Positions 15,939 to 62,670 of a stretch of 64,000 nt of DNA are shown one piece after another. Numbering within the stretch: the first letter of the stretch is position 1; every line of letters starts with the position of its first letter. This DNA is from Candidatus Levybacteria bacterium RIFCSPHIGHO2_02_FULL_40_18 (GTDB lineage: Bacteria > Patescibacteriota > Microgenomatia > Levybacterales > GWA1-39-11). The stretch lies in assembly GCA_001782235.1 (NCBI GenBank), contig MFOC01000002.1, forward strand, positions 42,912 to 106,911. Reading direction: 5' to 3'. The notes beneath the pieces are model-generated. The model saw only the letters and a list, made by a program, of their open reading frames with translations. It searched no databases and was not told the origin of the DNA. The position numbers were made by a program, and so were the translations under genes.

Positions 15939-15939
15939 A

Positions 15940-19321: not shown

Positions 19322-19354
19322 GGTGTTTTACCTCCGGGGATCGAAGAACCTGCC

Positions 19355-19378: not shown

Positions 19379-19680
19379 CCATTTTGAACTACTTTTCACG
19401 GTATGTCAATAGGTAAATGAACCAAAATAGTGTGGAAATACTCCTTTTTACGCTATATCTGGAAATCTTGCTGTTTTCATACAAAGTAGTAACATTAAGT
19501 AATCCAAATCGATTAGACACGAAGTGTACTTTTTCGAAGACAACTGAAAATCGCCCAGGAAAGATACTAATGTAAGAATAAAGATGAATATGCGATTTTC
19601 ATTTAGTGAGGGGTGGATAACTTTAACAGAGTAAAAACTTACCGAGCGGGTCTGAGAAAAACGTACACGAGCGGCTAGTG

Positions 19681-20166: not shown

Positions 20167-20209
20167 ATTTATTTATATACAGAAACAAGAATTGTAGTCA
20201 AGCGGAAGG

Positions 20210-20563: not shown

Positions 20564-20611
20564 TTTCTAGTTTGCAGAGAATTTTTAAAATTGTCAATAG
20601 AACAAAGTATA

Positions 20612-21973: not shown

Positions 21974-22039
21974 GAAATCATTATATCAAAGCAGGTTTTT
22001 ATTCTGTAGTAGCACTATCAAATTTCGGAGCATCTGCCT

Positions 22040-41289: not shown

Positions 41290-41417
41290 TAGAAATTGGT
41301 TAATAGAAATTTGATATTGGTTATGGAAATTAGATATTGGAAATTTGTATATTTTTAACTATTATCTATTTTCCAGTTTCCATTACCATTTTCCATTTTC
41401 TCACAACTATTTTCTAG
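41290..41417. repeat. palindromic AT-rich intergenic element, second copy of family A/B (TAGAAATTGGTTAATAGAAATT...AACTATTTTCTAG)
   Basis: Termini nearly identical to the element at 15812..15938. Internal GGAAATT / CCATTTTC heptamer arms. The right-end CTAG contains the TAG stop codon of GT4 41414..42580. Confidence 0.6.
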
Positions 41418-42580
41418 CTTACTGGTTTTGCTGCTTCTTCCAAGGTGTGCAAAACCTGTCTTGCGCTCTTTTCCCAAGAAAACTTTTTAACCTGTTCGTG
41501 CCCTTTCTTAATCATGTCATCGCGAAGTTTTTTGTCTGACAAAACTTTTTCAATTTTCTCCGCGATGTCCGATACATCTTCCGGATTAAAGTAAATTGCG
41601 GCATCTCCTCCTGCCTCGGGAAGGGAAGAAACATTACTTGTTAAAACTGGACATCCGTATTTCATCGCCTCTAAAATTGGCAGACCGAATCCTTCATAAA
41701 GGCTTGGCAATACAAAAAGTTCTGCGCTTTCATAAAATGCCGGAAGCTCTTCATCGGTAACATTTTCTAAAAATCGAACCCGATCTTCAACTCCGTATCT
41801 TCTTGGCGCTTCGAGAATTTCCTCATACTGCCACCCCCGCCTCCCAACAATCACCAGTTTTAAATCTTCTCCCACCCCTGAGGTGAGGACGCTTTCACCT
41901 CGGGGGTGAATAACGGCCGAAAATGCTTCGACTAGTCGTACAATATTCTTACGAGGTTGAAGTGTCCCGACGAATAAAATAAATGTCTTTTCGATTGAAT
42001 ATTTTTCAAGAATTTCTTTTTTTGACATTTTAGATTTATTTGCCTCCTTAATACCAAGATAAGCTACGTGTACGCGAGCCGCAGGGACATGGTACTCCTT
42101 GATTATATCATCCTTTGAGCTCCGGCTAATGGTGATGATTTTGCGAGCGGAACGAACAGAATATCCTCCCCACAAGTTGAGTTGAAGCAGATCCTTCTTC
42201 TTAAAAAGCTTCGGGAAATGCTTATATGAAATGTCTAGAATTGAAATTACTTGAGGACAAGGGGCGAACAACGGACCATAGTGGGTTGGCGAGAAGAAAA
42301 CATCAAATTCTTGCTTGCGAATAGCAGGGCTTAAGGCAAAAATTGTCCAAAGAGGCTTATTTGGCAATATTTCGTAGCGCCATCCTTCCCGTTCGCGAGG
42401 CAAGTCGGATGTAGGTTCGACAGGCAAAAAAATGACATACTCGTTTTGTTTATCAATCTTGTTTAGTTCGATTAACCATTCAAAGGCAACCTCTGAACTT
42501 CCAACCCTGTTTGGTAATCCATTCAAATCATATCCAAATCTTGGAATAACTCCTTCGTATCCATTAATTCCTATCTTCAT
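41414..42580 (-). CDS. family 4 glycosyltransferase (GT4)
   Basis: N-terminal MKIGINGYEG and C-terminal LPSLYEGFGLPILEAMKYGCPVLTSN. Confidence 0.8.
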   Translation of the reverse strand: MKIGINGYEGVIPRFGYDLNGLPNRVGSSEVAFEWLIELNKIDKQNEYVIFLPVEPTSDLPREREGWRYEILPNKPLWTIFALSPAIRKQEFDVFFSPTHYGPLFAPCPQVISILDISYKHFPKLFKKKDLLQLNLWGGYSVRSARKIITISRSSKDDIIKEYHVPAARVHVAYLGIKEANKSKMSKKEILEKYSIEKTFILFVGTLQPRKNIVRLVEAFSAVIHPRGESVLTSGVGEDLKLVIVGRRGWQYEEILEAPRRYGVEDRVRFLENVTDEELPAFYESAELFVLPSLYEGFGLPILEAMKYGCPVLTSNVSSLPEAGGDAAIYFNPEDVSDIAEKIEKVLSDKKLRDDMIKKGHEQVKKFSWEKSARQVLHTLEEAAKPVS

Positions 42581-42609: not shown

Positions 42610-42978
42610 TTAAGTATAAGTCTGGGAAGCCTTTATTAAACCATTGAGTAGCTTGTGAACTAAAATTATTGAATTCTCAATTATCAAGAAGTTTTCATTA
42701 GATACATATTCAAGTTCTTTCGAGATAATCAGTTGATTATGTAACTCTGTTACGGATCCTAACGCAATATAGTAAAATTGATTTTTTTCCTTCTTGTTTC
42801 TTCTTGAAAATCCCTCAGCAATATTACTAGTTACTGAAATAGCGCATCTTCGCATTTGTGTAGTAAGAGCGAATAATTCTTCCCTTGGAAATTGTTTAGT
42901 AATCTTATAAATTAACAGGACAAGCTTTATACCTTCCTGCCAAGCTATAAGGTCTTTAAAAGTGACGATTTTTGTCAT
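42610..42978 (-). CDS. four-helix-bundle protein (23S rRNA intervening-sequence-type, TIGR02436-like)
   Basis: 122 aa, all-helical, with a conserved-looking segment CAISVTSNIAEGFSRRNKKEKNQFYYIALGSVTEL typical of this family. Confidence 0.6.
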   Translation of the reverse strand: MTKIVTFKDLIAWQEGIKLVLLIYKITKQFPREELFALTTQMRRCAISVTSNIAEGFSRRNKKEKNQFYYIALGSVTELHNQLIISKELEYVSNENFLIIENSIILVHKLLNGLIKASQTYT

Positions 42979-43002: not shown

Positions 43003-43536
43003 TTATACTGTTGAGATTCCTGGATAGACAACACGTATCCTGCTCTCGTCTATCCCCAGAATCTCAAGTGCGTCTTTTTTGCTTGATTCAGAAATACAAA
43101 ACACGATATTGGACTCTTTTTTTACCCAAGAGAGTTTTCTTTTCTGAACTGAAACAATTTTTTGATCAGTCTCCTCCGGATGTTTATAAACAATAAGATC
43201 ATAAATTATAGTTACCTTTTTCGCTTTTCGCGCCGGCGGCTCTGTCCAATCGGAAGTAATAAACCAATCCACATCTCCCACAAACAGTTCTACCGGCAAA
43301 ATATGGAGCTTGTTCCATAATGTATCTAGAAGCGTCGGTGGGATTGGAAATTTGACAATTCGAACATTAATTGGAAATTGGAAATTGGAAATTGGAAATT
43401 GCCTTCGCAGGGAAGAAAAGAATAAAACAAATTCATGTTCGTCATTTTTAACCATTTCCCTTACCAAATTCGAAAGATAATTCGCTACTCCAGTATTGCC
43501 GTATGCAATCTGACTCACATCAATCCCGATCTTCAT
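43003..43536 (-). pseudogene. GT4 glycosyltransferase N-terminal fragment (177 aa, lacks the C-terminal GT-B domain)
   Basis: Starts MKIGIDVSQIAYGNTGVANY like the intact GT4s at 41414 and 29907, but terminates after the N-domain (VVYPGISTV*). The four-helix-bundle gene follows instead. Contains the TGGAAAT x4 repeat. Confidence 0.55.
43372..43399. repeat. in-CDS tandem 7-nt repeat TGGAAAT x4 (same unit as intergenic element family A/B)
   Basis: Read directly. Translated as QFPISNFQFPINV. Flanking ATTGGAAATTTG also occurs in element B. Confidence 0.7.
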
Positions 43537-43572: not shown

Positions 43573-43791
43573 TTAGTGCTTGCGGTTTTGAATTAAATAA
43601 ATGATGATCGCCGCCAGAAAAAATGCGGCGGCATAATAGGTAAGCCTTTGAGCTGTGAAGAAAACCCATGCTGAAAAAAGCGGAATCGCTAAAACTAAAC
43701 ATAAAAGTCCGACCAATGTAAACCATTCAGGTTTTCTCCTAAATAAAAGTCCCAAAAGTATAATCAAGAATATTAAATCTTGTGGTTTCAT
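43573..43791 (-). CDS. hypothetical small membrane protein (72 aa, 3 TM)
   Basis: Overlaps the upstream gene by 4 nt. Almost entirely hydrophobic. Confidence 0.3.
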   Translation of the reverse strand: MKPQDLIFLIILLGLLFRRKPEWFTLVGLLCLVLAIPLFSAWVFFTAQRLTYYAAAFFLAAIIIYLIQNRKH

Positions 43792-45674
43792 TTTTTTAAT
43801 TTGCTTCGAGCAAGGGACATAATGATTAATGCAAGTGTTATACTGCTAATCACGAGGCCAATGTGAACCCACTTTTGCGGTCCGTAATAAATTTCCAAGA
43901 CATAATTCCCTGTTTTTGGTAAGACGAAACTGTTCATTTTATTAAACTCCGAACTTGATACGTTTAAATTCGAACTTTTCGCTATCCAGTTTTGATCGTA
44001 CCCTTCGGCAAAAACTATTCTCTCATTTATTTCCGCATTTTTGATGTTAAGCTTATATCTTGTTGGATTTATAAATTTGTAATCAATTTGCAAGTTATCG
44101 TTTGGGCTCCAAAAACGATCCTTAAAGTCAGGGGCTTCAAATACTACAATTTTGCCGAACGTTTCAACTTTTTTAAGCCAGGGGATTTCTTCCAGCCCAT
44201 TAACCGCATCTTTATATTTTTGGTCATCATATTTCCTATCAGAAAGAAATATTTCGCCTTCAGAGTCTTGCGGCACTATCACATACCGTACGGATAAATT
44301 AGAAAAAAGCTCTTGTGACTCCTCCATATTTAACTCTTGAATCATGGCAGAAGCACTTCCCGATTTTAGAAGTTCATACCTCCCAATGGCAGGATTAATA
44401 TCCGAGAAATATCCATAGCGCTGCCACTCCGGAATCCAAAGAGTTCTAAAAAATTCATTTTGTTCAACTATAAAATCTTTAAGTCGAACATAACTCTCGG
44501 GAACTTTTCTAATTTGAAAAATATCGGAGATAAATATCAATCTTAAGCTAAATATCCAAAAAATTAAAAAGGCTCCAATTAATATCTTGTGTGAAATTTT
44601 CCTTTTTAGAAATACCGAAAAATTAAATAGCGAATAAGGTATAAGGATGGAATAAGAAAGCGCAATCAAAGAATAAAATTTTGTCGGATCTCGAAAAAGA
44701 CTAAACCCGGGAATGTTCTCAAATAACCACTCGAACACCCGACCGAATGGCTCATTTGTACCTTTTGCTAAAAAGACACCTGCTAATCCCAGAAGGGCAA
44801 AAAATAATATAACTCGGCTTTGGAGAATCTCTTTCTTGTTTTTTAAGTCTATAAAAAATAGGCTTACGAAAGCCAGAATCGGAATTATTAGGAATTCAGG
44901 CCGCATAAAGTATGTCTTTCCGAAAATATTTTCCGGCCAGTTGGGATGAAGAAGGGAGATTGTGTTTTCAAAAAGAGCAAAACTGAAAAATTTTAATCCT
45001 GAAAGTGAATCAAAACCCTGCGGCAGAAATGCGGGTTTAAACAATATAAGGGGAATAATCCAGTAAGAATGAAGAAGAAAAACAATTAGTAAAGGGGTAA
45101 TAACTACATACAGTAGATGCTTTTTAAAGAATTCGGATTGAAGAAGAGAATAAAAGAAGAGCGAACCTAAAGTAAGAAGAAAAAATCGGGGATCGAATAA
45201 AAGCTGCAGGGACAAAGCTAAGCTAAAAATGATGGAGGATCTTAGGTTTGTATTTCGCAGGAGATTTATAAATGTTAGAAATACGAGAGGCATAAGAGCA
45301 TAGGCAAATGCGACGCCCTGCTGCCCGCCTAAAAAAATAGTCAAAAAATAAGTATTGGTTGTAAAAATTATTCCTGACAGTAGCGAATAAACAATGTTCT
45401 TGCTGATAATGTTTCTGAAGAGAAAAAAGGCTCCCAAAAAAGCGATGAGAAGTGCTGGTATTATCCAAAAGACAAGATTTATGATAAACCAAGGAATACC
45501 AAGATAGGAAAAAAAGGAAGTAAGATTTAAAAAGCTAGTTATCCAAATCGTATTTATGGAGGAAATCCCGATTCCTGTATTAAGACTCGAATCCCAAGCA
45601 TACGGAACATGTGCGAAAAACTTTATATTTTCTGGCCAAAAAAACCTAAAGTCTCCTAAGAGTAGATTTAACAT
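43788..45674 (-). CDS. polytopic membrane protein with C-terminal extracytoplasmic domain (YfhO/GT-C-like)
   Basis: ~12 TM helices in the first ~400 aa, then a soluble ~200-aa domain and a terminal TM anchor. In an operon with the GtrB-like synthase. Confidence 0.45.
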   Translation of the reverse strand: MLNLLLGDFRFFWPENIKFFAHVPYAWDSSLNTGIGISSINTIWITSFLNLTSFFSYLGIPWFIINLVFWIIPALLIAFLGAFFLFRNIISKNIVYSLLSGIIFTTNTYFLTIFLGGQQGVAFAYALMPLVFLTFINLLRNTNLRSSIIFSLALSLQLLFDPRFFLLTLGSLFFYSLLQSEFFKKHLLYVVITPLLIVFLLHSYWIIPLILFKPAFLPQGFDSLSGLKFFSFALFENTISLLHPNWPENIFGKTYFMRPEFLIIPILAFVSLFFIDLKNKKEILQSRVILFFALLGLAGVFLAKGTNEPFGRVFEWLFENIPGFSLFRDPTKFYSLIALSYSILIPYSLFNFSVFLKRKISHKILIGAFLIFWIFSLRLIFISDIFQIRKVPESYVRLKDFIVEQNEFFRTLWIPEWQRYGYFSDINPAIGRYELLKSGSASAMIQELNMEESQELFSNLSVRYVIVPQDSEGEIFLSDRKYDDQKYKDAVNGLEEIPWLKKVETFGKIVVFEAPDFKDRFWSPNDNLQIDYKFINPTRYKLNIKNAEINERIVFAEGYDQNWIAKSSNLNVSSSEFNKMNSFVLPKTGNYVLEIYYGPQKWVHIGLVISSITLALIIMSLARSKLKK

Positions 45675-45675
45675 T

Positions 45676-48285
45676 TTAATGGTTATACTTTTTAAGCATT
45701 CTTTTTAAAGTTTTTCTTTTTGAATACAATCCTGTAATTGTAATAAGTCCGATTGTTGTAGCGCTTATTCCTGCCCCTATTTTAAATGAATCCGGAGAAT
45801 AGTACATTCGGATAACATGCTTCCCTTTTTGAGGGATTATTACCCCCTTCACTAACCCGTCAGCCATATAGACGGTTACTGGCTTACCACCAAGTTCTGC
45901 CTTCCATCCAGGATAATATGAGTCGCTGAATTGCAGAACCGCATTATCTTTTTGAGATTCCATCTCAAAAATCAAATCTTCAGGGGTAAACTTTTGAATT
46001 GAAACAGTGCCGGGCGACGCATTCTGAGAAGAAAGTTTTTTAAAAACCTCGGATAAAGTTTCACCATTCCTATCAGAATAACTCCATGCTGGTTTATTTG
46101 TCCAAATGGATCCTGACCTTGCATGTAAGCTTTCGTATTCAATCCACTTACTTTTTAACTCTATAATTTTCCCAGTATTTTGATAATCGCCCTTTATTGT
46201 TTCAAAAGTATCCTTATTTCTAATTCGGGGGCCAACCAGTATTAGAATCGGAAAATTTTTGAGTTCTTCAATTGTGTAATCTTCAAGATCTTTTTTTAAA
46301 GAAAGAATTGTTATTTTTTTCTCGTCAAAATCGGGATGAAACATTAGTTGTTTTGCAATAAACCCAGAGAAGTCATTAAAACGATTGTCAGAGATAAGAA
46401 GAATAGGATTTGAAATGACAGTTATTTTAGGCAATACATTCCTATCGTAAAAGATTCCCCCTTCTCCTGTTGTTGCCATTGGAGCAAGGCGTGTTTCAAG
46501 ATAATCACATACACCATCCTCTGGTTTTTTTACTTCATCTTCAATAGTATTTTCAAGATTTATTTTCGGCAGGTCCAATCTGTTACATCCCTCATACTCA
46601 AAATATTCTCTTTGTTGCATAACAAATCTTGTATTTAAAACGCTGAATATTTTAAATCTTTTTTTTGTTACCTCTAAGCTATCTTGAGTGCTACCTTTTT
46701 GAATAACCGAATCTTCATAGGTTGGTACAACTTTGGCATAGAAAGGGGATAATGAATAAATATTACCTTCTAGCAAGTCTGCATTAGAAAGATTATAGAA
46801 ATCACTAGTAAAATTTGAGTATAATCTTCCCTCTGGTTTATAAACGTTAAAAACGTGAAGTAAAATGGCTAAGAGATTGGTTGTTTTTATGCTTGTATAG
46901 GGTGGATTATTATAATCTTGAGTTTTAATGATATTAATTGGTTCATTTTTAACTTTTTCTAGTAAATTGATACTATTTGTAAGACTTGCTGATTTAAAAG
47001 AGGTCTGAATAAATGTGACAGTGGAAAAAATGAGAATCATTCCAAAAATGTATCCAAAAAATCTAATTATAAAATGTCTTTTTTGTCTTATTAAAAGGTC
47101 AAGACCTAGAGCAACACAAACCATAAATGCAAATTGTATGATAATCATGAAACGAAAAGGATACTTGTTGGAATTGAAACCTGGAAGAAAATTATATATT
47201 AACGAGTAAAAATCAATTGGGACCTGATTAGCTAGATATCCCCATATGCCAATAATTAACAAGCCTAAAAATATTCCATGCAATAGAGATCGCTTTAATA
47301 AAAAATAGATAAAGCAAATAAGAACAAGGAAAATACCTATGTCATTTGCCCATTGTGTAAAAGAAGTAGTATGCCCAGGAGTAATAAAAAAATTACGTAA
47401 ACGATCCCAGAGCACAGAAAATGGCTGAATATCAACTTCTGATTCAGAAAGAGAAAGAAGACTTCTTGATGAAAGAGATCGGAATTCCAGTAATGGAATT
47501 AGTTTTACTGCTGAAATCCCAATGAATCCAACCCAAAAAACAACATTTAAAGATAAATATGAAAAAAAATGTTTGAGAAAATTTAAATTTCTCTCTTTTC
47601 TATTTTCCCACAAAAACCGCAAACCTAACATAAGCATTATCCATAAGAGCACTATTGAATTGTAGTGGAAAACATAATATGTGTTGTCAAAAAAATGCAA
47701 AGACATAATAATAGCTCCGATAATCATGTATAGGTAATTTTTTTTCATTATTCCAAGCCATACAAACATAACTGTAAGAGGAAGAAGCATAACTCCTATG
47801 AATTCTTCAAACCAACCATTTACACCAAACAAAAATGCATATTGGTTAGCCACATAAGGAATGCTAATAAGAAAACTCGTAGTCCGAGAAAGCTTTAGAA
47901 CTCTTAATAGAAAATAAAATGCTACAGATGCAAATGAAATATAAAAAAGTTCCATAAATCGAGCCGCTGATGCAGGATCATTAAAAAAAATAATAGTTAA
48001 CCAAGCAATAGGAGAAAAATGGTAACCGCTTGGATGACTTATTAATGACATACCCGATAAGAGAAACTGATTCCATAATGCAAATTGACCATAGTGAATA
48101 AGTGAGTATTTCATTACTATTGCAATATATCCGTTAAATCGTGCGGCATCTCCAAAAATAATTGTTTTAGGAGCTGTTATTAAAAATTGATAGGTAAATA
48201 CTGTGATCAAAACCAGCAATAGACCAATTAGAATATCTTTCAAATGACCAGAAGATAAATTTATTTTTTTAAAGATTTTTTTCAT
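45676..48285 (-). CDS. YfhO-like GT-C superfamily membrane protein (869 aa)
   Basis: N-terminal region FGDAARFNGYIAIVMKYSLIHYGQFALWNQFLLSGMSLISHPSGYHF resembles the YfhO family. ~14 TM helices, then a ~450-aa extracytoplasmic C-terminal domain. Confidence 0.5.
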   Translation of the reverse strand: MKKIFKKINLSSGHLKDILIGLLLVLITVFTYQFLITAPKTIIFGDAARFNGYIAIVMKYSLIHYGQFALWNQFLLSGMSLISHPSGYHFSPIAWLTIIFFNDPASAARFMELFYISFASVAFYFLLRVLKLSRTTSFLISIPYVANQYAFLFGVNGWFEEFIGVMLLPLTVMFVWLGIMKKNYLYMIIGAIIMSLHFFDNTYYVFHYNSIVLLWIMLMLGLRFLWENRKERNLNFLKHFFSYLSLNVVFWVGFIGISAVKLIPLLEFRSLSSRSLLSLSESEVDIQPFSVLWDRLRNFFITPGHTTSFTQWANDIGIFLVLICFIYFLLKRSLLHGIFLGLLIIGIWGYLANQVPIDFYSLIYNFLPGFNSNKYPFRFMIIIQFAFMVCVALGLDLLIRQKRHFIIRFFGYIFGMILIFSTVTFIQTSFKSASLTNSINLLEKVKNEPINIIKTQDYNNPPYTSIKTTNLLAILLHVFNVYKPEGRLYSNFTSDFYNLSNADLLEGNIYSLSPFYAKVVPTYEDSVIQKGSTQDSLEVTKKRFKIFSVLNTRFVMQQREYFEYEGCNRLDLPKINLENTIEDEVKKPEDGVCDYLETRLAPMATTGEGGIFYDRNVLPKITVISNPILLISDNRFNDFSGFIAKQLMFHPDFDEKKITILSLKKDLEDYTIEELKNFPILILVGPRIRNKDTFETIKGDYQNTGKIIELKSKWIEYESLHARSGSIWTNKPAWSYSDRNGETLSEVFKKLSSQNASPGTVSIQKFTPEDLIFEMESQKDNAVLQFSDSYYPGWKAELGGKPVTVYMADGLVKGVIIPQKGKHVIRMYYSPDSFKIGAGISATTIGLITITGLYSKRKTLKRMLKKYNH

Positions 48286-48316
48286 TTATTTCCGGTATAA
48301 AGAATGACTATTTCAA

Positions 48317-49246
48317 TCACAAATAAAGCTTTTTAATGAGGTACTGTGGTCTTTTTCTAATTTCATCGTAAATCCTCCATAAATATTCTCCTATGACTCC
48401 AAGCATCATCATAATTAATCCTGAGGCAATTAGTAATACAATCATTATAGGTGCATATCCTTGAAATGGGATATCGTTAAACAATCGTGCAAAAAGAACT
48501 ACTAATGCATATATAAATCCTAAAAATGACGTCATAACGCCGATAAAAGACATTATCCTTATTGGCAAATAAGAGGTATTGATAAATCCGTCAATAAAAT
48601 ACTTAATTTTCTTTGTGAAATTCCATTGAGATTTTCCTATTACTCTTTTTAACCGTTTATACTTTATGAAATAGGGTTCGTATCCTAACCAAAGAAGATC
48701 TCCCTGAATGAAAGAATTTCGCTCATCAAAGCTCAATACCCTTTTATATACCTCATTATCTACTAAAAAATAATCAAAACCTCCCGCCGGCATTTTTGGA
48801 ACAGCTACCTTAATTAGGCTATAAAATATTTTAGATGTAATTTTAGAAATAAAATCATCTTCTCTATCTATTCTTGCACAAGCAACCACTTTGTAACCCT
48901 TATTCCATTTTTCAATCATTTTTGTAATAAGGTCAGGCGGATCTTGTAAATCGGCCGAGATATGTATAAGAAGATTCCCCTTCGCATGCTGAAAACCTGC
49001 AAGTATTGCGGACTGCTGCCCAAAATTCCTTACAAAATCTATTACTGTAACATTCCTGTCAACTTTCTTTATTTTCAGCAACTCATTCAAAGAATTATCA
49101 TCCGAGCCGTCGTTGATAAATATAATTTCATAAGCATATCTGCTTAATAATTCTCTTAATACGGAGATAAGACTTATGTAGGTCTTGTACAATGTCCCTT
49201 CATTTCTATAAACAGGAACAACTACCGAAATCAGCTTTTTTTTCAT
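48317..49246 (-). CDS. GtrB/ArnC/DPM1-like polyprenyl-phosphate sugar synthase (GT2 with C-terminal TM hairpin)
   Basis: VVVPVYRNEGTL...INDGSDDNS...RNFGQQSAILAGF...ADLQDPP catalytic core plus two C-terminal TM helices ending GVIGEYLWRIYDEIRKRPQYLI. Confidence 0.8.
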   Translation of the reverse strand: MKKKLISVVVPVYRNEGTLYKTYISLISVLRELLSRYAYEIIFINDGSDDNSLNELLKIKKVDRNVTVIDFVRNFGQQSAILAGFQHAKGNLLIHISADLQDPPDLITKMIEKWNKGYKVVACARIDREDDFISKITSKIFYSLIKVAVPKMPAGGFDYFLVDNEVYKRVLSFDERNSFIQGDLLWLGYEPYFIKYKRLKRVIGKSQWNFTKKIKYFIDGFINTSYLPIRIMSFIGVMTSFLGFIYALVVLFARLFNDIPFQGYAPIMIVLLIASGLIMMMLGVIGEYLWRIYDEIRKRPQYLIKKLYL

Positions 49247-49252
49247 TGCAAC

Positions 49253-49849
49253 TTATAATTCCTGGTCTTTTAAAAATTTTATTTCTTTTTCAAGAAGTTC
49301 TCTCGATCTTTTTTTTATAAATTTAGCCGGAATACCACCGTAAATACAAAAACTTTTACAGTTATTCTTAATGAGTGAAAGAGCCCCAACGCAGACTCCG
49401 TCTTCAAGTATTATGTTTGGAAGAATTATGCTACCCGACCCAACTATAACATGCTTTCCAATATTAACATCTCCGTGAGTCACGTTGGTAAATTTTGGAT
49501 CAACTGTAGGATTTGTCATATACTCCCCTGAATAATCATCGCTGCTTGAATAGATAGAAACTCTTGATGAAATTGTTGAAAAATCACCAACAGTTATTTT
49601 CTCTTTGCCAATCAAAGAAGCAAATACAGAGATATGAATGTTTTTACCGATCCAAATACCTCCGCTCCCTGCTGATAAAACGCAAAAATCATCAATTCTG
49701 GAATTATCCCCTATTGAAATATTGCTCGTATTATGGAAAGAGGCCTTCGGTGAGATTTTTAGATTCTTGCCTAAATGCTTGAAGCCAAATTTATTTAATT
49801 GAGGTCTTGTTAAAAATGCCATATTATGATACTTCCTTCTGGGACGCAA
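49253..49849 (-). CDS. hexapeptide-repeat acetyltransferase (likely amino-sugar N-acetyltransferase)
   Basis: LbH repeats IGDNSRIDDFCVLSAGSGGIWIGKNIHI...IGKHVIVGSGSIILPNIILEDGVCVGALS. Gene overlaps the DegT aminotransferase gene. Confidence 0.75.
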   Translation of the reverse strand: MRPRRKYHNMAFLTRPQLNKFGFKHLGKNLKISPKASFHNTSNISIGDNSRIDDFCVLSAGSGGIWIGKNIHISVFASLIGKEKITVGDFSTISSRVSIYSSSDDYSGEYMTNPTVDPKFTNVTHGDVNIGKHVIVGSGSIILPNIILEDGVCVGALSLIKNNCKSFCIYGGIPAKFIKKRSRELLEKEIKFLKDQEL

Positions 49850-50912
49850 TAATTAGTTTCGCAATTAAATTCACTTCCTCTTTAGATAACGACTCATATA
49901 AAGGAAGGCACATAATTCTCCTTGCTATATCTTCCGACACTGGACAGCTATACTTTTTGACGTAATTTAATGTATTTAGAGATGGATAAAAATATCTTCG
50001 CGGAAAAATATTGTGCTTATTTAAACTGTTTTTTACTCTCAAAAGCTCGGATTCTGATTCAAATATGACTGGATAATACGAATAATTATATTCTAAATTC
50101 TCAAAGAGCCCCGGTCTGGTTAATTTAGCCCTCTTAAGTGCTTCATCGTAAAGTTTGGAGAGCTTTCTTCTCCTTGATATAAAGGTCTTAACTTTTGGGA
50201 GTATGGCAAGTCCCATAGCAGCATGGAATTCTGTATTCTTCCCATTTATACCTAATCCAAAAAAGGATTCCTCCCCGTTATGTCCAAAGTTGCGCATGTA
50301 AGAAATTTTATGAGCAAACTGGTCGTCTGAAGTGGTTATAGCTCCTCCCTCAACGGTATGAAAGATCTTTGTTGCGTGGAAACTTAGAATAGATATATCT
50401 CCAAAGTTAACCAAGGGAATTTTTTTATATTTAACACCAAATGCATGCGCGGCATCGTATATGATTTTAAGTTTGTTTTTCTTTGCAATCTTTCCAATCG
50501 CCTCAACATCGCAAGAATTTCCATATACGTGGACAGCCAATATCGCCTTTGTTTTTGAGGTAATGGCTTTTTGAATTTTTTTTACATCAATAGTTAATGT
50601 TCCTGGATCAATATCAACAAAAATCGGCCTACAATGCTCCCAAACTATTGACGAGGTTGACGCTACATAAGAGAAAGGCGTGGTTATTATCTCTCCATCT
50701 TTCAGGTCAAGAGCGCGTATAGCAATCTGCAAAGCGGTAGTACCATTGGAAACGAAAAATAAATGTTTAACCTCTAAATATTTTTTAAGTTTCTTTTCAA
50801 GACTAAGTACGTATTTACTGTGGTTTGTGATAAATCCGCTCTTCCATATCTCCTCAACATATTTGATATATTCTTTGATAGGCGGAAGATATGTTTTAGT
50901 TACGGTAATCAT
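49824..50912 (-). CDS. DegT/DnrJ/EryC1/StrS-family PLP-dependent sugar aminotransferase
   Basis: Conserved layout with NGTTALQIA, DAAHAFG and the Schiff-base lysine in SFHATK. Confidence 0.85.
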   Translation of the reverse strand: MITVTKTYLPPIKEYIKYVEEIWKSGFITNHSKYVLSLEKKLKKYLEVKHLFFVSNGTTALQIAIRALDLKDGEIITTPFSYVASTSSIVWEHCRPIFVDIDPGTLTIDVKKIQKAITSKTKAILAVHVYGNSCDVEAIGKIAKKNKLKIIYDAAHAFGVKYKKIPLVNFGDISILSFHATKIFHTVEGGAITTSDDQFAHKISYMRNFGHNGEESFFGLGINGKNTEFHAAMGLAILPKVKTFISRRRKLSKLYDEALKRAKLTRPGLFENLEYNYSYYPVIFESESELLRVKNSLNKHNIFPRRYFYPSLNTLNYVKKYSCPVSEDIARRIMCLPLYESLSKEEVNLIAKLIIASQKEVS

Positions 50913-50922
50913 CTTTTATACA

Positions 50923-51609
50923 TTATTTCTTTGCGATTATAAATACGGGCGAATTAATAAAAGTTGATTTTATTGCTATGGGGAATATTAAATGTAAGTG
51001 TTTACTGAGTTTATAAAAAAAGGGGAGAAAAGAAACTTGCCTAATAGATAACTTGGTAAATCCGTTTTTTTTAAATATTTTTTTCCATTCGTTAAGCGAT
51101 TTAACATTTATATGCGTGGGGTCGTTTGACAAATCAGTTTGGGCATTTGGTGTCGAACATATAAGTACACCGTTTTTTTTGAGTTTATTTTTCATATTGA
51201 TTATCGCATGTTCTGGATTTTTCAAATGCTCAATTACTTCAAAGGCTATAATTATATCAAAAGTCCCCATCAACGGTATACGTTTTTCTACGTCAAACAC
51301 GTGAAATGAGATGTTTTTTTTAAGTTTCTTTGCAAGTTTTTCTGCTTTACTAACTGCATATTTTGAAATATCCGAAGCATGAACTTCAAAACCGCGTTCG
51401 TAAAAAATATTACTCGCGCCTCCTATCGAACAGCCAATCTCCAAAACCTTACGGCCTACGCCATTTTTAAGGTCAACAAATTTATCAAGATAGGAAATCC
51501 AACCATAAAACCAATTTATAGAACGATCCAAATCCCCTTCTTTAAATTCGCCAACATTCCTCGTATAATAACCAGTGAAATACCCCTTTTCAAATTTGCG
51601 CCTTTGCAT
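50923..51609 (-). CDS. class I SAM-dependent methyltransferase
   Basis: Motif I VLEIGCSIGGAS and motif II region. Clear paralog of 55522..56211. Confidence 0.75.
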   Translation of the reverse strand: MQRRKFEKGYFTGYYTRNVGEFKEGDLDRSINWFYGWISYLDKFVDLKNGVGRKVLEIGCSIGGASNIFYERGFEVHASDISKYAVSKAEKLAKKLKKNISFHVFDVEKRIPLMGTFDIIIAFEVIEHLKNPEHAIINMKNKLKKNGVLICSTPNAQTDLSNDPTHINVKSLNEWKKIFKKNGFTKLSIRQVSFLPFFYKLSKHLHLIFPIAIKSTFINSPVFIIAKK

Positions 51610-52049
51610 TAAGCCTCGTGTAAACTTACTCTTTCAATTATTAGTTGTCTTATAACATAAGTTAGGATAAAAACATACGCCGCAAATCCCAAAACGTCGG
51701 AAGCAAATTCAAGCTCAATAACTGTAAAGGGAATGGCAAGAATAAACATTGCAATTCCAAAAATGAGTGTTCTTTTATTGGTTATGTATTCCCTAAGGAG
51801 GAGATTAGCAAGAATCCATAGTATCGCAGCTATGTAGTAATAATACTTGTCAATAATATTAAAGTAAGGAAGAGTATTAAGAAACACTAAGAACTGATAG
51901 GTAAAAACCAAAAATACAATTTGAGGCAAATAATCCCTAAAGAACTTAGTAGGTGTCCTAAATGACTTTTTTATTTTTTCCGAAAGATTGTCCAACATAC
52001 TCCAACAATAATAGTGAAAATTGTAGCTACCGTCAAATACGCACCCCAC
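51609..52049 (-). CDS. small polytopic membrane protein (possible GtrA-like flippase; start probably at internal Met)
   Basis: 3-4 hydrophobic helices in ~130 aa. Overlaps the 3' end of the upstream gene. Functional guess comes from context only. Confidence 0.25.
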   Translation of the reverse strand: MGCVFDGSYNFHYYCWSMLDNLSEKIKKSFRTPTKFFRDYLPQIVFLVFTYQFLVFLNTLPYFNIIDKYYYYIAAILWILANLLLREYITNKRTLIFGIAMFILAIPFTVIELEFASDVLGFAAYVFILTYVIRQLIIERVSLHEA

Positions 52050-55000
52050 ATGTATATCTTTTGAGGATAGTAATATAAGTTAACTTTTTTTTGTATACCA
52101 TCTTTTACATACCACCCATTTGTGAATCCTCCTGAGGGGTAGTGCGCATCAGTATCGAATGGTATACATTCTTTACCTTCCTCACAGAAACGCCAGAATT
52201 TTCCATAGCTTTCGCGCATAACTAAAGTAACCGGATCTTTGCTTGGCTTAACATTTATATTGTATTCAACTGGACTTATCTTCTCAAAGTCTGAAACATA
52301 TTCATTTTCTTGCGTTGCTCTTTGTTTTTGATAAAAGACTACCACAGGAAATGAAATTTTATAGAGAGCAACATCCTGAATTTCTATTATATTCTGACCA
52401 GGATCAATAAATCTTAAGTCTTCTCTTCCTTTAATACCTTGCTCCTGACTAAGAGACACGAACCCATTACATAGGTTTATTTTTATTCTATCTCCTACTG
52501 GCCTTACTAATTCATTATGAGTTGCCCAAGCACGACTATTAGGGATAAATGATTCCCGTATCCTGAGTCTTGGAATTTTCACTTTTGGATCATTAACATA
52601 GAAACTTAAATCATTTTTATCAGTTAAGTTTCTATAACTAAATGAAACTATGTATTCAGCTCCCAAGGTCTCAAGATTGTTAACTGAATAAGTCATGCAT
52701 TTATTTCTACTTTCAAGATTCATGGAAATCTTATTGCCGTCTCTAATAATCCCTCCTGTACCATCAGGAAACTCAGGTTTTACAGAGGAAATAAGATTAG
52801 ATAGTGTTGAGTCTTGAAAAGCCAGATGAACTTGATTTTGTGTAAAGTTCATTTTTCCAAAATATAACCAATCACTTACCTCCGCAATCGGAGCAAGGGA
52901 TACATTGTTTTCTTGTACTGATATTCTTGAGCCCGATGAATCTCCCACGGGATTTGAAAAGCTATTCTTCTTAGCGTATATATCGTAGCTTCCCGTTTTA
53001 GGAAGATCAAAAATATATCTTTTATCTATTATGTCTTGCGTAACCCATTGTTTTTGGTCTGTAATTTTTTTAATTTCCAATAACTCATCGTAAGCTAACG
53101 AAAAACCTTTTCTATGATCTATATTAAGTATTGGATTATCAAAAATCGAATCAATAAGCGTAACCTCTTGTAATAAGTGTCCGTTAATAGTTCGCGCTAA
53201 TCTATTTTCTTCTTTACCGCTAACGCTCCAACGCTTTGATACCAAATCTTTGAGTTCGACGATTGCTTTATTGTATCCATCTACTGCTCTTTGCAAGAAT
53301 TGTAATTTTTCTTTTGAATCTATCATCCATTTTGCTTCCACAATTCTTCTATCAGCGATAGTTAGATAATGGTTAACTAGTGAGGAAAAGTCACGTGCTT
53401 GTTCGCGAATCCTATCTTCTCGATATAAAATTAAAGGATAAAGAACAGAACCAGGTAGAATTTTAGGATTGTAATAAGTGAATCCAAAAAACTCTTCTTT
53501 TAAGTTACACTGTATACATTCTGGAGCAACAAATATATCTGTTGCTTCATTCGCGTAATATGAAAATTTTTTAGGTTCAAGATCAGCCATAAAGAGAGGA
53601 CTTGTTGGATCAAACCCAGGGAAAGAAACAATGTTTTTTAATTCTCCCTGTAAAAAATTAAGCTTTGGAGTGATTGTTATTCTATACGATCTATCTGTAT
53701 CCGCGATGTCATACACTTTCCATTTCCCAAATGTTTTTTCAAGCTTAAACTTAGGATTATTATCAAGAATCTTCCCATAGATCGCAGGATTAGTTGTCCC
53801 CCATGAAATGTTCTGCCAATCAAAATCTTCATGTACTATGACTCCATCAATTGCAAATACTTCAGTAAAGTCAGTAAAACTTTTAATATCCTCATGAAGC
53901 AAAGCGCTATACATTTGTTTCATTAAAAATCTTTCACTCTGAGGAACCAAAAAAGTATTCTGAACATAAGAATTTTTAGCCATTAGACTATTTATTGGGG
54001 CTGCGCTCCAATATCCCCATTGATATGCGATATATCCCGTATCGCTTATCTCAGGAACTATAAGATATCGCCTTGTCGGATTTTGTTGATTTACCCATTT
54101 ACCAAAATCGAAAACATATTGTGGTACGTTAACGCGGGTTGAAAGCTCTTTTCCTGGCTCACTCGAATAATCAAAAAAAGATCCGCTTATGATTGGGTAA
54201 TGGTATAGTACATAAAGCACGGTAAATAGACCTATTAAAACAAAATGAATGGGGGGAATAAATATTTTTTTTGTTTTAGCAAACTGCTCAAATCGCGAAA
54301 ATATCACATCAAGAGTAAAACCAATTAGAATACCGTACACAAACCATTGAACATAATCGAATTTGTAAAAATTACTTCTAAATATTGCGAATCCGGGAAT
54401 ATATAGAATAAAGAATTCATAGATAATACCAAGTTGTGACTTAGGACCAGCGGCAAAAATTAAAGTCACTAAGCTAATTAAAACAAAAAGATAAATAAAG
54501 AATTTTTCTCTTTTTATTTTTACAAGCAACAAAGACCCGTAAGCCGCAAGAGGAAAAAAGAAGCTTGCAACTATTAAAAACGGATTTAATAAAAAGTTTC
54601 CCGCATATGAGTGATATGCATTTAAATACCACTCTGGTATTCCCTGACCTCTAAAAAGGTTTATAAATGTAGATCCTTTTGAAAGATATTCTGACCAAGC
54701 CAGTGCCCCTTGCGCACCCCCTGCAAGAGCTAAATCCCGAGAGTAAAAACCCAAAATATAGTAGATGTAGGGGAAAAACCAATATGCACTGAGCAAAAGG
54801 TACAAAATACCTACTCCAAAAAAATAGAGTATTGTTTTTCGGAGCGTCTGAAAACTCCTTTCAATAAAATTGAAGTACAAAGCTGAGAGTACCAAAAAGA
54901 TTATAAGCCCTCCATAGAGAGGAAAACTTCCACCGCCATTCAAAATACCAAGCGTTATACCTGTCCCCAAAACAGATTTTAAAAGACTTATCTTTTTTGT

Positions 55001-61859: not shown

Positions 61860-61863
61860 ATTA

Positions 61864-62637: not shown

Positions 62638-62670
62638 AGTTTTAAATTTGGTTACTTATTTTAACATATT

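Follow-up and report, generated by a model that had tools for sequence, protein, structure and literature searches.

Predicted lipid-carrier-dependent glycosylation with an N-acylated amino sugar by an operon of a Candidatus Levybacteria genome

A compact block of eight minus-strand genes in a Candidatus Levybacteria metagenome-assembled genome (CPR/Patescibacteria) raises the question of which sugar these genes handle and to what it is passed. The window analysed was a single stretch of 64,000 nucleotides (64 kb), and the eight tightly packed ORFs, spanning positions 43573 to 52049, were recovered at exactly the coordinates given in a first-pass annotation. Neighbouring genes are separated by -4 to +31 nt, and none of the gaps holds a terminator-like site. 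Each of the ORFs has conserved homologues, and for those of 628 and 869 codons, at 31-35 % GC, a chance origin is impossible. The operon most likely produces an amino-deoxy sugar in N-acylated form, couples it to a lipid-phosphate carrier in the membrane and passes it to two large outward-facing GT-C glycosyltransferases, and would represent a new, uncharacterised example of a well-known bacterial surface-decoration route.

The 309-aa protein (48317-49246, minus strand) is a GtrB/ArnC/PgfS-type polyisoprenyl-phosphate glycosyltransferase (GT2) with a GT-A domain, a juxtamembrane region and two C-terminal transmembrane (TM) helices (residues 227-245 and 267-285). Residues 6-307 align with GtrB 5EKP (E=1.1e-66), and the alignments with ArnC structures are also full-length (E=1e-39 to 1e-41). 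Its full-length NCBIfam matches, of which PgfS (3.4e-63) is the best and ArnC (1.4e-48) another, lie under the equivalog cut-offs (214 bits against 500 for PgfS, 166 against 529 for ArnC). R125, D158 and R201 are the equivalents of GtrB R122, D157 and R200, and the DXD motif reads S97-A98-D99, with Ser in place of the first Asp. This substitution is confined to a clade linked to DegT and AntD-like genes (5 of 118 sequences) and may alter or even weaken synthase activity. The protein, earlier labelled a GtrB/ArnC-like synthase, is classed here as a bona fide GtrB-family synthase; it is the sole GtrB-type GT2 in the window, where two or three GT-Cs share it.

The two genes preceding the synthase gene point to the nature of the donor. 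The 362-aa protein (49824-50912, minus strand) is a DegT/DnrJ/EryC1-family PLP sugar aminotransferase (Pfam PF01041, E=2.9e-91), as had been noted. Its top NCBIfam match is the DesI-type dTDP-4-dehydro-6-deoxyglucose aminotransferase (6.6e-68), with further matches to PseC, LegC and WecE, all under equivalog cut-offs; the ArnB model yields 149 bits where 631 are required. In the PDB, sugar aminotransferases and perosamine synthases match it best (E about 1e-45 to 1e-50), compared with only 1e-27 for ArnB, and the enzyme is predicted to be an NDP-4-keto-6-deoxyhexose 4-aminotransferase. The next gene encodes a left-handed beta-helix (LbH) enzyme, which as a mechanical ORF starts at TTG (49253-49849, minus strand, 198 aa) and most likely starts at M10 (49822), giving 189 aa (49253-49822). 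It carries the Pfam Hexapep repeat (E=4e-9) and matches PDB 3VBI-3VBP over its full length (E about 4e-46, 45.6 % identity over 182 positions). One of these structures, 3VBN, shows AntD of Bacillus cereus, the N-acyltransferase that serves D-anthrose synthesis (PMC6031040). The fold assigned in the first-pass annotation was thus upheld while its generic acetyltransferase label was not, and the sugar is described as N-acyl rather than N-acetyl because the enzyme is AntD-like. The substrate of AntD, in work of Kubiak and Holden from 2012, is reportedly dTDP-4-amino-4,6-dideoxyglucose. Since the LbH enzyme is AntD-like, the donor is probably an N-acyl-viosamine-type sugar; with AntD homology at 46 % and sub-threshold DegT family matches as its basis, a 3-amino or GDP-perosamine-type route may apply instead.

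DegT, the AntD-like gene and the GT2 gene co-vary as one donor cassette. The three genes stand in this order, 1-6 nt apart, in the window and in five of the homologous loci used for comparison, which carry L-numbers (L001, L006, L088, L100 and L171). The DegT protein is 62 % identical in L001, L006 and L088, always with the AntD-like gene directly downstream. GT2 identity reaches 51-78 % only in loci with DegT and AntD-like genes alongside, against 31-34 % elsewhere, whereas homologues of the 869-aa protein stay at 43-46 % identity with or without an adjacent cassette. Of 80 unrelated metagenome loci with an AntD-like gene, about 19 also have a full-length GtrB-type GT2 abutting it, and the lineages with this adjacency are themselves unrelated, with GC contents from 26 % to 65 %. 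In L004 and L007 the GT2/GT-C pair occurs together with epimerases and no LbH enzyme; the pair as such is therefore not bound to amino sugars.

Downstream of the synthase gene lies the 869-aa ORF (45676-48285, minus strand), whose product has an N-terminal polytopic TM domain, an extracytoplasmic alpha/beta and beta-sandwich region of about 400 aa, and a C-terminal TM helix. Its family aligns with YfhO proteins by hhalign at E=4.8e-47; the Pfam YfhO model itself misses the protein, and the Pfam YfhO and AftD models remain under threshold on window proteins except for a 1210-aa ORF (GT-C_AftD). The protein is classed as a divergent YfhO-superfamily GT-C glycosyltransferase, in agreement with its earlier YfhO-like label, on the basis of fold and profile comparison. 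The predicted structure models of this and the 628-aa protein are both confident, and each shows a GT-C fold in which an N-terminal Asp is invariant. This contradicts a placement of the large proteins among unrelated transporters. The 869-, 628- and 1210-aa proteins are paralogues with a common N-terminal G(H)D motif. A GtrB-like GT2 gene lies immediately upstream of every 869-aa homologue examined (L001, L002/L003, L004, L006, L007 twice, and L171). The earlier GtrB/YfhO comparison holds as to the YfhO superfamily, but the YfhO-like gene is a rare insertion in the locus and the widely conserved partner of a GtrB-like gene in Patescibacteria is the 628-aa GT-C.

The 628-aa protein (43788-45674, minus strand) belongs to a Patescibacteria-wide family of more than 1100 members that is unannotated in Pfam. 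Its GT-C-like label was borne out by fold; it is a remote paralogue of the two larger proteins, and its G-D motif is N-terminal with no preceding TM helix. Family members adjoin a GtrB-type GT2 in L168, L169 and L170. The last 4 nt of the 628-aa gene, its stop included, are shared with the start of the 72-aa ORF (43573-43791, minus strand), which encodes a conserved micro-protein with 2-3 TM helices. Homologues 49-62 % identical to it directly follow the 628-family gene in L002, L003 and L169, and in L168 the homologue follows a GT2 that intervenes downstream of that gene. A set of 1.84 billion proteins contains 77 cluster representatives of the family, almost all of them 70-77 aa long. A profile scan gave no flippase-family match, and a DUF7657 match was sub-threshold only. 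The 72-aa protein is probably an accessory subunit of the 628-aa GT-C, a putative role, and the widely conserved core consists of these two and a GtrB-like synthase, which are conserved across distant Patescibacteria together with GT4N, GT4, Hexapep, GT2 and Wzy-like genes.

The remaining two genes of the block, placed in the amino-sugar operon by the first-pass annotation, belong to an adjacent GT-C module. The 228-aa protein (50923-51609, minus strand) is, as labelled, a class I SAM methyltransferase (Methyltransf_23, E=3.6e-24), with a C-terminal TM anchor (207-225). It is 62-63 % identical in L004, L006 and L007, with or without DegT and AntD, is a paralogue of a methyltransferase at 55522-56211, and belongs to a neighbouring block of methyltransferase, GT-C of about 1200 aa, TM protein of about 129 aa and methyltransferase. 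The 146-aa ORF (51609-52049, minus strand) starts mechanically at GTG; its start is most likely M18 (51998), giving a protein of 129 aa with 3 TM helices (51609-51998), because homologue alignments begin there and family members are about 129 aa long. This gene comes after the 1210-aa GT-C gene, the two overlapping by 28 nt, and an identical overlap with the upstream gene in L006 fits the M18 start. Like the methyltransferase, the protein is conserved with or without DegT and LbH genes. Its identity is 47-50 % in L004, L006 and L007, falling to 28-30 % in L002, L168 and L169; the gene always follows a GT-C gene of about 1100-1200 aa in the loci compared, and the family has only 16 homologues, none with a Pfam domain and none matching GtrA, EamA or SMR. 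The 1210-aa ORF (51971-55603, minus strand, probable start near M41) is a third paralogous, AftD-like GT-C, scoring 27.1 bits against the Pfam GT-C_AftD cut-off of 26 and matching the 628 family by hhalign with 98.4 % probability (E=5.4e-15, 529 columns). The suggestion that the small TM proteins are flippase subunits found no homology in its favour (GtrA, EamA, SMR and DUF2304 matches were absent from every member of both families), each travelling instead with its GT-C, 72 aa with 628 and about 129 aa with 1210.

The 6-deoxyhexose genes noted nearby (59456-63762) are real and could supply an NDP-4-keto-6-deoxyglucose precursor. RmlD (269 bits, cut-off 224) and RmlC (190, cut-off 156) pass their NCBIfam thresholds and lie on the minus strand with an SDR and the RfbF-like gene, while the RfbF-like glucose-1-phosphate cytidylyltransferase (258, cut-off 300) and the plus-strand RmlB-like dTDP-glucose 4,6-dehydratase (62671-63762; 317, cut-off 365) fall under theirs. 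The locus adjoins the dcw cluster. Besides the rhamnose genes (RmlBCD) it encodes an initiating phosphoglycosyl transferase, glycosyltransferases of families GT4 and GT2 and a Wzy-like protein, and its five or six polytopic GT-C or Wzy-like proteins include PMT_2-like 742-aa and 491-aa proteins. No recognisable flippase homologue was found in the 64-kb window.

In the pathway proposed, a nearby nucleotidyltransferase and the RmlB-like dehydratase, assigned by family, would form NDP-4-keto-6-deoxyglucose, the nucleotide being presumptive. The DegT enzyme would aminate C4 to give NDP-4-amino-4,6-dideoxyhexose, a regiochemistry suggested by its DesI- and perosamine-synthase-like best matches and its AntD partner, and the LbH enzyme would, by homology, N-acylate the amine with an acetyl or short hydroxyacyl group. 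The GtrB-type GT2 would then move the N-acyl sugar onto polyprenyl phosphate at the cytoplasmic face, a step favoured by family, architecture and four of five key residues, with the donor suggested by the co-variation of the cassette. A flippase encoded outside the window would turn the lipid-linked sugar outward. The 869-aa GT-C, the 628-aa GT-C (probably with its 72-aa partner) or both would transfer it to an extracytoplasmic acceptor, with the conserved Asp, observed in the first outward loop of the fold, as the presumed catalytic residue. The acceptor is most likely the cell-wall glycopolymer built by the rest of the locus, with its phosphoglycosyl transferase, GT4/GT2, Wzy-like and rhamnose genes beside the dcw cluster. 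The pathway would parallel the way in which streptococci and lactococci decorate their rhamnose-rich wall polysaccharides with side chains. Adjacent GT-A/GT-C pairs with a flippase encoded elsewhere are documented, as is the use of one synthase, GttA, by two GT-Cs, GttB and GtlB (PMC8035078). The core of the earlier proposal, namely cytoplasmic tailoring of an amino-deoxy sugar, transfer to polyprenyl phosphate and an extracytoplasmic GT-C, is supported by the GtrB family assignment, the GT-C folds and the co-conservation of the genes in the loci compared. Lipid-carrier amino-sugar glycosylation by the DegT, AntD-like, GtrB and GT-C proteins, with a glycopolymer as most likely acceptor, is considered the probable explanation overall.

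Protein O-glycosylation, in which the GT-Cs would pass the lipid-phosphate-linked N-acyl amino sugar to Ser/Thr-rich surface proteins (pilins, S-layer proteins or adhesins) and not to a glycopolymer, as with streptococcal PgfS/PgfM and actinobacterial PMT, is judged unlikely. PgfS, the best NCBIfam match of the synthase, is part of the Pgf protein-glycosylation machinery of S. mutans, and Patescibacteria rely heavily on surface proteins in host attachment; however, the PgfS score is far under its cut-off, the operon sits inside a classical glycopolymer locus, the nearest fold and sequence relatives (AftD, AftA and YfhO) act on glycopolymers, and no candidate acceptor protein is encoded near the operon. 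Slightly more doubtful is an extracytoplasmic polymer assembly resembling that of mycobacterial arabinan, in which the 628-, 869- and 1210-aa GT-Cs and the 742-aa and 491-aa proteins would go beyond side-chain decoration and successively build the backbone or branches of a major Patescibacterial envelope glycan from polyprenyl-phosphate sugars. The number of polytopic proteins within one locus, the retention of its architecture across distant Patescibacteria and the size of the 628 family agree with such a role, but a single GtrB-type synthase in the window provides too few donors for a multi-sugar polymer, the conventional cytoplasmic route (phosphoglycosyl transferase, Leloir GT4/GT2 and Wzy-like protein) can explain the backbone, and there is no sign of processivity.

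It is quite improbable that the adjacency is coincidental, with DegT and the AntD-like enzyme feeding a cytoplasmic Leloir glycosyltransferase and the GtrB-like synthase loading a common sugar (Glc or GlcNAc, from UDP-sugar) for the GT-Cs. The AntD product of the anthrose pathway (ant operon) goes to a soluble glycosyltransferase, a neighbouring GtrB-type gene is absent from most of the 80 AntD-like metagenome loci (many of these contigs are short), and L004 and L007 have GT2/GT-C pairs but neither DegT nor LbH. Against this stand the dependence of GT2 identity, but not that of the downstream GT-C, on the presence of DegT and AntD, the restriction of the S97 active-site substitution to cassette-linked GT2s, the conserved gene order and the recurrence of the neighbourhood in unrelated lineages.

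Compared with known systems, the proposed amino-sugar decoration follows the working principle of Arn and of Gtr/CsbB-YfhO, and it is orthologous to none of them. It resembles CsbB/YfhO (plus GtcA), GtlA/GtlB, GacI/J/K/L and CsdAB in having a membrane-anchored GT-A synthase directly beside a GT-C, a flippase possibly encoded elsewhere, possibly one synthase for two GT-Cs, and a context like that of a rhamnose-containing wall-polysaccharide cluster. The donors of those systems are Glc, Gal or GlcNAc from the UDP-sugar pool, whereas an N-acyl-4-amino-4,6-dideoxyhexose from a dedicated cassette is predicted here; the organism belongs to the CPR, the window ORFs scanned included no recognised teichoic-acid gene, and novel 72-aa and 129-aa membrane proteins occur in place of a GtrA/GtcA or GacJ (DUF2304) homologue. 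The Arn-like character claimed at first holds for the logic of the Arn (PmrHFIJKLM) pathway, with DegT amination, N-acylation, GtrB-family transfer to undecaprenyl phosphate and an extracytoplasmic GT-C, but not for orthology, as the ArnB and ArnC cut-offs were missed widely and no orthologue was found. In the related locus L169, a formyltransferase gene and a polysaccharide deacetylase-family gene even adjoin the 628-aa homologue. The Arn sugar is a pentose, acylated by a formyltransferase and transferred by a GT-C of ArnT/PMT_2 type, whereas a 6-deoxyhexose, an LbH acyl-CoA transferase and GT-Cs of YfhO/AftD type are predicted here, and neither the ArnA decarboxylase, the ArnD deacylase nor ArnE/ArnF was found in the window. 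CPR bacteria are considered monoderm and without lipid A, and the window showed no lipid A genes; the acceptor must therefore be another than that of Arn.

The Bacillus anthrose pathway (AntC, AntD) has its LbH enzyme in common with the operon: the one here matches AntD along its whole length at 46 % identity, and a DegT aminotransferase is encoded immediately upstream. The predicted product is therefore an N-acylated 4-amino-4,6-dideoxyglucose; a 3-hydroxy-3-methylbutyryl donor is not indicated, because the window has no AntA-like enoyl-CoA hydratase. The anthrose product is used by a soluble Leloir glycosyltransferase whose target is a spore glycoprotein, whereas a lipid-phosphate carrier and GT-C are predicted here, and the nearby methyltransferase is membrane-anchored and outside the cassette. 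Mycobacterial AftD and AftA, which depend on decaprenyl-phosphate-arabinose, share the conserved N-terminal Asp (essential AftD residues include K39 and D41) and polyprenyl-phosphate donors, and the 1210-aa paralogue exceeds the Pfam AftD threshold. Sequence identity is only 11-14 %, the donor synthase here is GtrB-type with no DprE1/E2 or UbiA-type pathway in the window, and the 628-aa protein is without the three carbohydrate-binding modules and the ACP-binding helical bundle of AftD.

The locus appears to encode a concrete pathway, in which an aminotransferase, an AntD-like acyltransferase and a GtrB-type synthase form a defined donor cassette and two or three GT-C transferases come from families without Pfam annotation. 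All eight minus-strand ORFs of the operon at 43573-52049 listed in the first-pass annotation are present with exact coordinates, and the gaps between them are -4 to +31 nt. No terminator-like sites were detected between the operon genes in a promoter/terminator scan, in which promoter and terminator counts did not exceed the shuffled expectation, and which is informative only for this absence of an intergenic terminator. The LbH gene most likely starts at M10 (49822) rather than at the mechanical start, and the ORF called as 146 aa most likely starts at M18 (51998), giving a protein of 129 aa.

The 309-aa protein is the sole GtrB-type GT2 within the window. Its N-terminal GT-A (GT2) catalytic domain (PF00535, E=2.7e-26, aa 7-135) is combined with juxtamembrane helices and two C-terminal TM helices located by hydropathy at 227-245 and 267-285, which is the full-length GtrB/ArnC architecture. 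Residues 6-307 align at ungapped scale with residues 28-329 of GtrB (5EKP, E=1.1e-66), and the protein also aligns with the ArnC cryo-EM structures 9HWJ, 9BHC and 8VXH (E ~1e-40). The key residues of GtrB are D94xD96, R122, D157 and R200 (PMC4728340), and four of the five are retained as D99, R125, D158 and R201; the DXD motif reads S97-A-D99, with Ser in place of the first Asp. The D-D-R-D-R pattern was found in 90 of the 118 GtrB-type sequences compared, and S-D-R-D-R was confined to five, which are GT2s adjoining DegT and AntD-like genes. The equivalog models for PgfS (213.7 bits vs a cut-off of 500) and ArnC (165.6 bits vs a cut-off of 529) were not reached, and by sequence the 309-aa protein is assigned to the GtrB/ArnC-type PI-GT family as an orthologue of neither. 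A 344-aa GT2 with one TM helix, encoded at 56204-59450 (minus strand) together with a 742-aa PMT_2-like membrane protein (a further putative GT-C) whose gene start it overlaps by 17 nt, was considered as a second lipid-phosphate sugar synthase. It was rejected as not GtrB-type by sequence because its likeness to other GT2s is limited to the N-terminal core. This gene pair is conserved (357 aa + 557 aa) in L169, one of the related or metagenome loci (L001-L171) that carry homologues of the window proteins.

The 362-aa protein belongs to the DegT family of sugar aminotransferases (PF01041, E=2.9e-91), and the curated entries that it matches best are 4-aminotransferases acting on 4-keto-6-deoxy sugars (DesI type, 6.6e-68; perosamine synthases, ~1e-45). 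It scores 149.1 bits with the ArnB model, vs a cut-off of 631, and DesI-, PseC-, LegC- and WecE-type models all score above ArnB; the match to an ArnB structure (1e-27) compares with 1e-50 for the best aminotransferase structure. The LbH protein, with the DegT gene directly upstream, matches PDB entries 3VBI-3VBP over its full length (E ~4e-46) and is 45.6 % identical over 182 positions to 3VBI. The enzyme in these entries is AntD of Bacillus cereus, the N-acyltransferase of the anthrose pathway. In the 2012 work of Kubiak and Holden, the substrate that AntD acylates is reportedly dTDP-4-amino-4,6-dideoxyglucose. The likeness to AntD, together with an adjacent RmlB-like dehydratase and nucleotidyltransferase, makes an NDP-4-(N-acyl)amino-4,6-dideoxyhexose, of viosamine type, the predicted product. 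The anthrose system (AntA-D) resembles the operon in having an AntD-like N-acyltransferase next to DegT and differs in its AntA-like enoyl-CoA hydratase for 3-hydroxy-3-methylbutyryl-CoA supply, since no crotonase/ECH-family match was obtained among the window ORFs scanned.

The 628-aa and 869-aa membrane proteins have no significant Pfam or NCBIfam match, and a protein of a Candidatus Levybacteria MAG, "hypothetical protein A3C30_00460", is 100 % identical to the 869-aa one, which places the window in a CPR/Patescibacteria genome. The 869-aa protein gave a sub-threshold PTPS_related match (19.4 bits) and no match to Pfam YfhO (PF09586) even at E up to 10, although several close homologues have weak precomputed PF09586 matches, and P0003, a homologous database protein from L171, has an unmarked match. 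When 19 close members of the 869-aa family were compared by hhalign with 11 PF09586-annotated proteins, the families aligned with 100 % probability (E=4.8e-47) over 669 columns spanning 28-861, and an N-terminal Asp, FLPG..FR.P.R and YPGW.A.DG are motifs common to both. The predicted structures of the two large proteins are confident (pLDDT 84.8 and 85.7, pTM 0.84 and 0.86). The 869-aa protein folds as a GT-C, and its first extracytoplasmic loop carries a conserved acidic residue; its leading fold matches are ALG12 (16.4) and AftD (16.1), then AftA, AglB, Pmt4, STT3B, ArnT and PglB. The 628-aa protein also has a GT-C fold, closest to AftD (18.9, 524 residues aligned), followed by Pmt4, STT3B, AglB, AftA, ArnT and PglB; it scores 10.9 bits (E=0.1) with Pfam GT-C_AftD (PF11847) vs a cut-off of 26, which the 1210-aa paralogue barely clears with 27.1 bits. 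The accessory parts of AftD (~1400 aa), three carbohydrate-binding modules and an ACP-binding C-terminal bundle, are absent from the 628-aa protein, in which the C-terminal portion shows one beta-sandwich region and a lone terminal TM helix. The 628-aa, 869-aa and 1210-aa proteins are remote paralogues by profile comparison (E=1.4e-18 and 5.4e-15) and have in common an invariant Asp near the N-terminus (D46 in the 869-aa protein, D8 in the 628-aa protein, and a "GHD" motif). The catalytic or metal-binding acidic residue of GT-C enzymes sits at this N-terminal site, and the essential residues of AftD include K39 and D41. Fold and profiles uphold the earlier GT-C reading of the large proteins over one as unrelated transporters without a GT-C catalytic loop. 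Residue 72 of the 869-aa protein is Asn where >90 % of the close family has Asp (ALWDQF), and it is probably not catalytic, since YfhO-annotated relatives carry Asn there as well (PLWNP). Searches of the large proteins against PDB by phmmer returned noise or low-complexity matches only, among them a spurious one to a designed repeat protein and, in NCBIfam, a short one to MmpA at aa 286-345.

The operon genes had been expected to be co-conserved across related genomes, and a GtrB-like GT2 lies directly upstream of every 869-aa homologue with readable context (L001, L002/L003, L004, L006, L007 twice, and L171). The genes upstream of the GT2 vary: the window, L001, L006 and L171 have DegT and an AntD-like gene, L002 has a nucleotidyltransferase, a dehydratase and a long DegT, and L004 and L007 have epimerases only. 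In loci that have DegT and AntD, the GT2 is 66-78 % identical to the window protein (51-64 % in L100 and L088), against 31-34 % elsewhere, whereas the 869-type GT-C is 43-46 % identical with or without them. As GT2 identity tracks DegT/AntD presence while GT-C identity stays flat, the DegT, AntD-like and GT2 genes behave as one donor cassette. An AntD-like probe against metagenome contigs showed that a DegT partner is usual, and in ~19 of 80 loci the AntD-like gene directly adjoins a full-length GtrB-type GT2, mostly with a Pfam-blank polytopic protein alongside and at contig GC contents of 26 % to 65 %. The association of an N-acyl amino sugar with the GtrB route thus recurs well beyond Levybacteria. 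AntD-like and GtrB-type GT2 genes occur with a 530-780-aa polytopic protein in L100, L107, L126, L134, L137, L144, L147, L153 and L157, and these proteins have almost no Pfam annotation (one has DUF6077). The polytopic neighbours in other lineages gave negative hhalign comparisons to the 628-aa family and could represent GT-C families, as yet unrecognised, that go with the same sugar.

The 628-aa family has >1162 matches, nearly all unannotated, across the phylum. In the distant Patescibacteria loci L168, L169 and L170 its neighbour is a GtrB-type GT2 carrying two C-terminal TM helices. A counterpart of the 72-aa ORF of the window, 71-75 aa long and 58-62 % identical, is present as well in L168 and L169, and in loci of this type the GT4N, GT4, LbH, GT2 and Wzy-like block of the window then follows. 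On this distribution, the 628-aa GT-C, its micro-protein and the GtrB-like synthase are the ancestral, widespread trio. The YfhO-like 869-aa gene, with only ~19 close homologues, is an insertion specific to its lineage that separates the synthase from the 628-aa gene. In L007, the stretch 7997-22586 holds two tandem cassettes of epimerase, GtrB-like GT2 and YfhO-like GT-C and, after these, a GT2-methyltransferase fusion, a formyltransferase and a 1573-aa ORF that extends past the locus edge and is 56 % identical to the 869-aa protein over its first ~860 aa.

The small TM proteins gave no sign of their proposed role as flippase subunits: no GtrA, EamA, SMR or DUF2304 match was found in the 72-aa protein, the 129-aa protein or all 16 members of the 129-aa family (Pfam, E up to 10), and neither small protein has similarity to GtrA, ArnE/F or GacJ. 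Both are conserved micro-proteins that always travel with their GT-C transferases, and among 1.84 billion proteins 77 cluster representatives fall into the 72-aa family. A homologous database protein, P0188 (721 aa), carries the 72-aa homologue at the N-terminus of an unannotated ~650-aa protein with ~12 TM helices, which could be a genuine fusion or a gene-calling read-through; it yields no functional clue because the fused part matches neither Pfam nor any window protein. The methyltransferase and the 129-aa protein, placed within the Arn-like pathway in the first-pass annotation, accompany a ~1200-aa GT-C with or without amino-sugar genes, and the 129-aa protein and the 228-aa membrane-anchored methyltransferase are parts of a neighbouring module. 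The last 28 nt of the 1210-aa GT-C gene (51971-51998) are shared with the 129-aa gene, and the identical overlap in L006 (6300-6327) implies translational coupling of the two genes. Two class I SAM methyltransferases, at 50923-51609 and 55522-56211 (minus strand), lie on either side of the 1210-aa GT-C, in a block that L004, L006 and L007 also retain, and are paralogues (~39-44 % identical through homologues). Each ends in a predicted TM helix (~aa 207-225), which suggests a membrane-bound and possibly lipid-linked substrate.

Upstream of the operon (higher coordinates) are the 1210-aa membrane protein, the second methyltransferase, the 742-aa PMT_2-like protein and its GT2, then RmlD, RmlC, an SDR, an RfbF-like nucleotidyltransferase and an RmlB-like dehydratase (plus strand). 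Downstream are a split GT4, an LbH acetyltransferase, a GT2 and a 1079-aa Wzy-like protein, followed by more GT4 and GT2 enzymes, an initiating phosphoglycosyl transferase, a DUF4012 protein and then the dcw division/cell-wall cluster, to which the remaining window ORFs belonged once scanned. The 1079-aa protein (36561-39800, minus strand) has ~18 predicted TM helices and a sub-threshold Wzy_C (O-antigen ligase/polymerase) match only, and closes the same gene block in L002 (44 % identity), L168 and L169.

The parallel to the Arn pathway drawn earlier holds for the logic of sugar preparation and fails for membership, as the ArnB and ArnC cut-offs are missed and ArnA, ArnD, ArnT and ArnE/F are lacking. 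No Formyl_trans_N or Polysacc_deac_1 domain (ArnA/ArnD) was detected in the window ORFs scanned, and no PMT_2/ArnT-type GT-C (ArnT) or SMR/EamA-like flippase (ArnE/F) was found in the operon. Acylation would be carried out by the LbH enzyme, whereas Arn uses the ArnA formyltransferase. A closer Arn parallel than the window is L169, which like L007 carries a formyltransferase gene and also has a deacetylase-family gene, these resembling the ArnA formyltransferase domain and ArnD. In L169, from a MAG labelled Saccharimonadales, the Formyl_trans_N formyltransferase and polysaccharide deacetylase-family genes (6299-9932) lie directly upstream of a 628-family GT-C, its 71-aa partner and a GtrB-like GT2. 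The operon is orthologous to neither CsbB/YfhO nor PgfS, and resembles CsbB/YfhO in that a GtrB-type GT2 is directly upstream of a YfhO-like GT-C (window, L001-L007 and L171). It also resembles three-component (Gtr-type) systems, of which the hallmarks have been described (PMC11127046, PMC8035078), in encoding a lipid-phosphate sugar synthase and a GT-C together. Those systems have a dedicated flippase (GtrA, Wzx or MATE type), whereas none of the GtrA, Wzx, MATE or MurJ type was found among the ORFs of the 64-kb window. That result is compatible with the mechanism, because the flippase is often unlinked in characterised systems (PMC8035078). The traits that distinguish the window system are its predicted donor sugar, CPR host, Pfam-blank GT-C families, micro-protein partners and S-A-D motif.

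With the observed family assignments, folds, conserved residues and gene linkage, a six-step route can be proposed. NDP-glucose, with the nucleotide presumed, would be converted to NDP-4-keto-6-deoxyglucose; the DegT enzyme would aminate it, presumably at C4; and the AntD-like enzyme would N-acylate the amine with a presumed acyl group. The GtrB-like enzyme would then move the sugar onto polyprenyl phosphate, a putative flippase would turn the lipid-linked sugar to the outward side of the membrane, and the YfhO-like GT-C, the 628-aa GT-C or both would pass it to a presumed extracytoplasmic acceptor. By analogy, this acceptor is most likely a wall glycopolymer, given the phosphoglycosyl transferase, Leloir glycosyltransferases, Wzy-like protein, rhamnose genes and adjacent dcw cluster, and the analogue is the way in which streptococci and lactococci decorate rhamnose-rich polysaccharides (PMC8035078). 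The rival in which the sugar is transferred to protein, as O-glycosylation, has to be set beside this array of polysaccharide genes. A further rival is that the GT-Cs build a polymer, as those of the mycobacterial type do. The sugar genes might also be adjacent by coincidence. A reference-genome scan with the 309-aa GT2 returned relatives of only <=42 % identity, from many phyla, and none of these had an AntD-like gene or a 628/869-type partner, so that the scan says nothing about the cassette. The covariation of the GT2 with DegT and AntD, and their recurrence in metagenome loci, speak for the donor cassette.

A broader reading is possible, and we regard it as rather doubtful, in which the region from 36 to 60 kb represents a single copy of a Patescibacteria-wide extracytoplasmic envelope-glycan supercluster. 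An AftD/YfhO-like GT-C clade, each member with a micro-protein subunit, would assemble or diversify the main surface polymer, and swappable donor cassettes would vary the surface between strains. Its parts would be the 628-aa GT-C, the 72-aa partner, the GtrB-like synthase, the split GT4, the LbH enzyme, the GT2 and the Wzy-like protein, and further the 1200-aa GT-C, its 129-aa partner and the membrane-anchored methyltransferases. If this were true, a previously unrecognised GT-C clade would act outside the cell of ultrasmall epibionts, with cassettes for N-acyl-viosamine here and formylated or epimerised sugars elsewhere, which would bear on host and phage recognition. Within a literature search of incomplete coverage, no experimental accounts of CPR/Patescibacteria cell-envelope glycans were found, and none tying CPR bacteria to GT-C or lipid-phosphate-sugar glycosylation, or viosamine-type sugars to a lipid-monophosphate carrier. 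Confirmation of the pathway would add N-acyl-4-amino-4,6-dideoxyhexose to the short list of polyprenyl-monophosphate-borne sugars, define candidate new GT-C families and identify genes shaping the epibiont surface met by hosts and phages. The general mechanism is already well established in other bacteria, and the advance would be one of scope and detail, not principle.

Two further genes were observed within the glycan locus. An IS200-like Y1 transposase-domain protein is encoded at 35768-36433 (minus strand); its gene has the Wzy-like 1079-aa gene on one side and, on the other, an ORF of the plus strand (34761-35705) with no Pfam match. A gene for a 23S rRNA intervening-sequence (bAvd-like) protein (IVP) at 42610-42978 (minus strand) lies between two GT4-related genes, a 177-aa ORF (43003-43536), which corresponds to the N-terminal half of a GT4 and no more, and a complete GT4 (41414-42580). 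The two-gene GT4N and GT4 arrangement is kept without the IVP gene in L002, L168 and L169, and another IVP gene adjoins the GtrB-like GT2 in L170.
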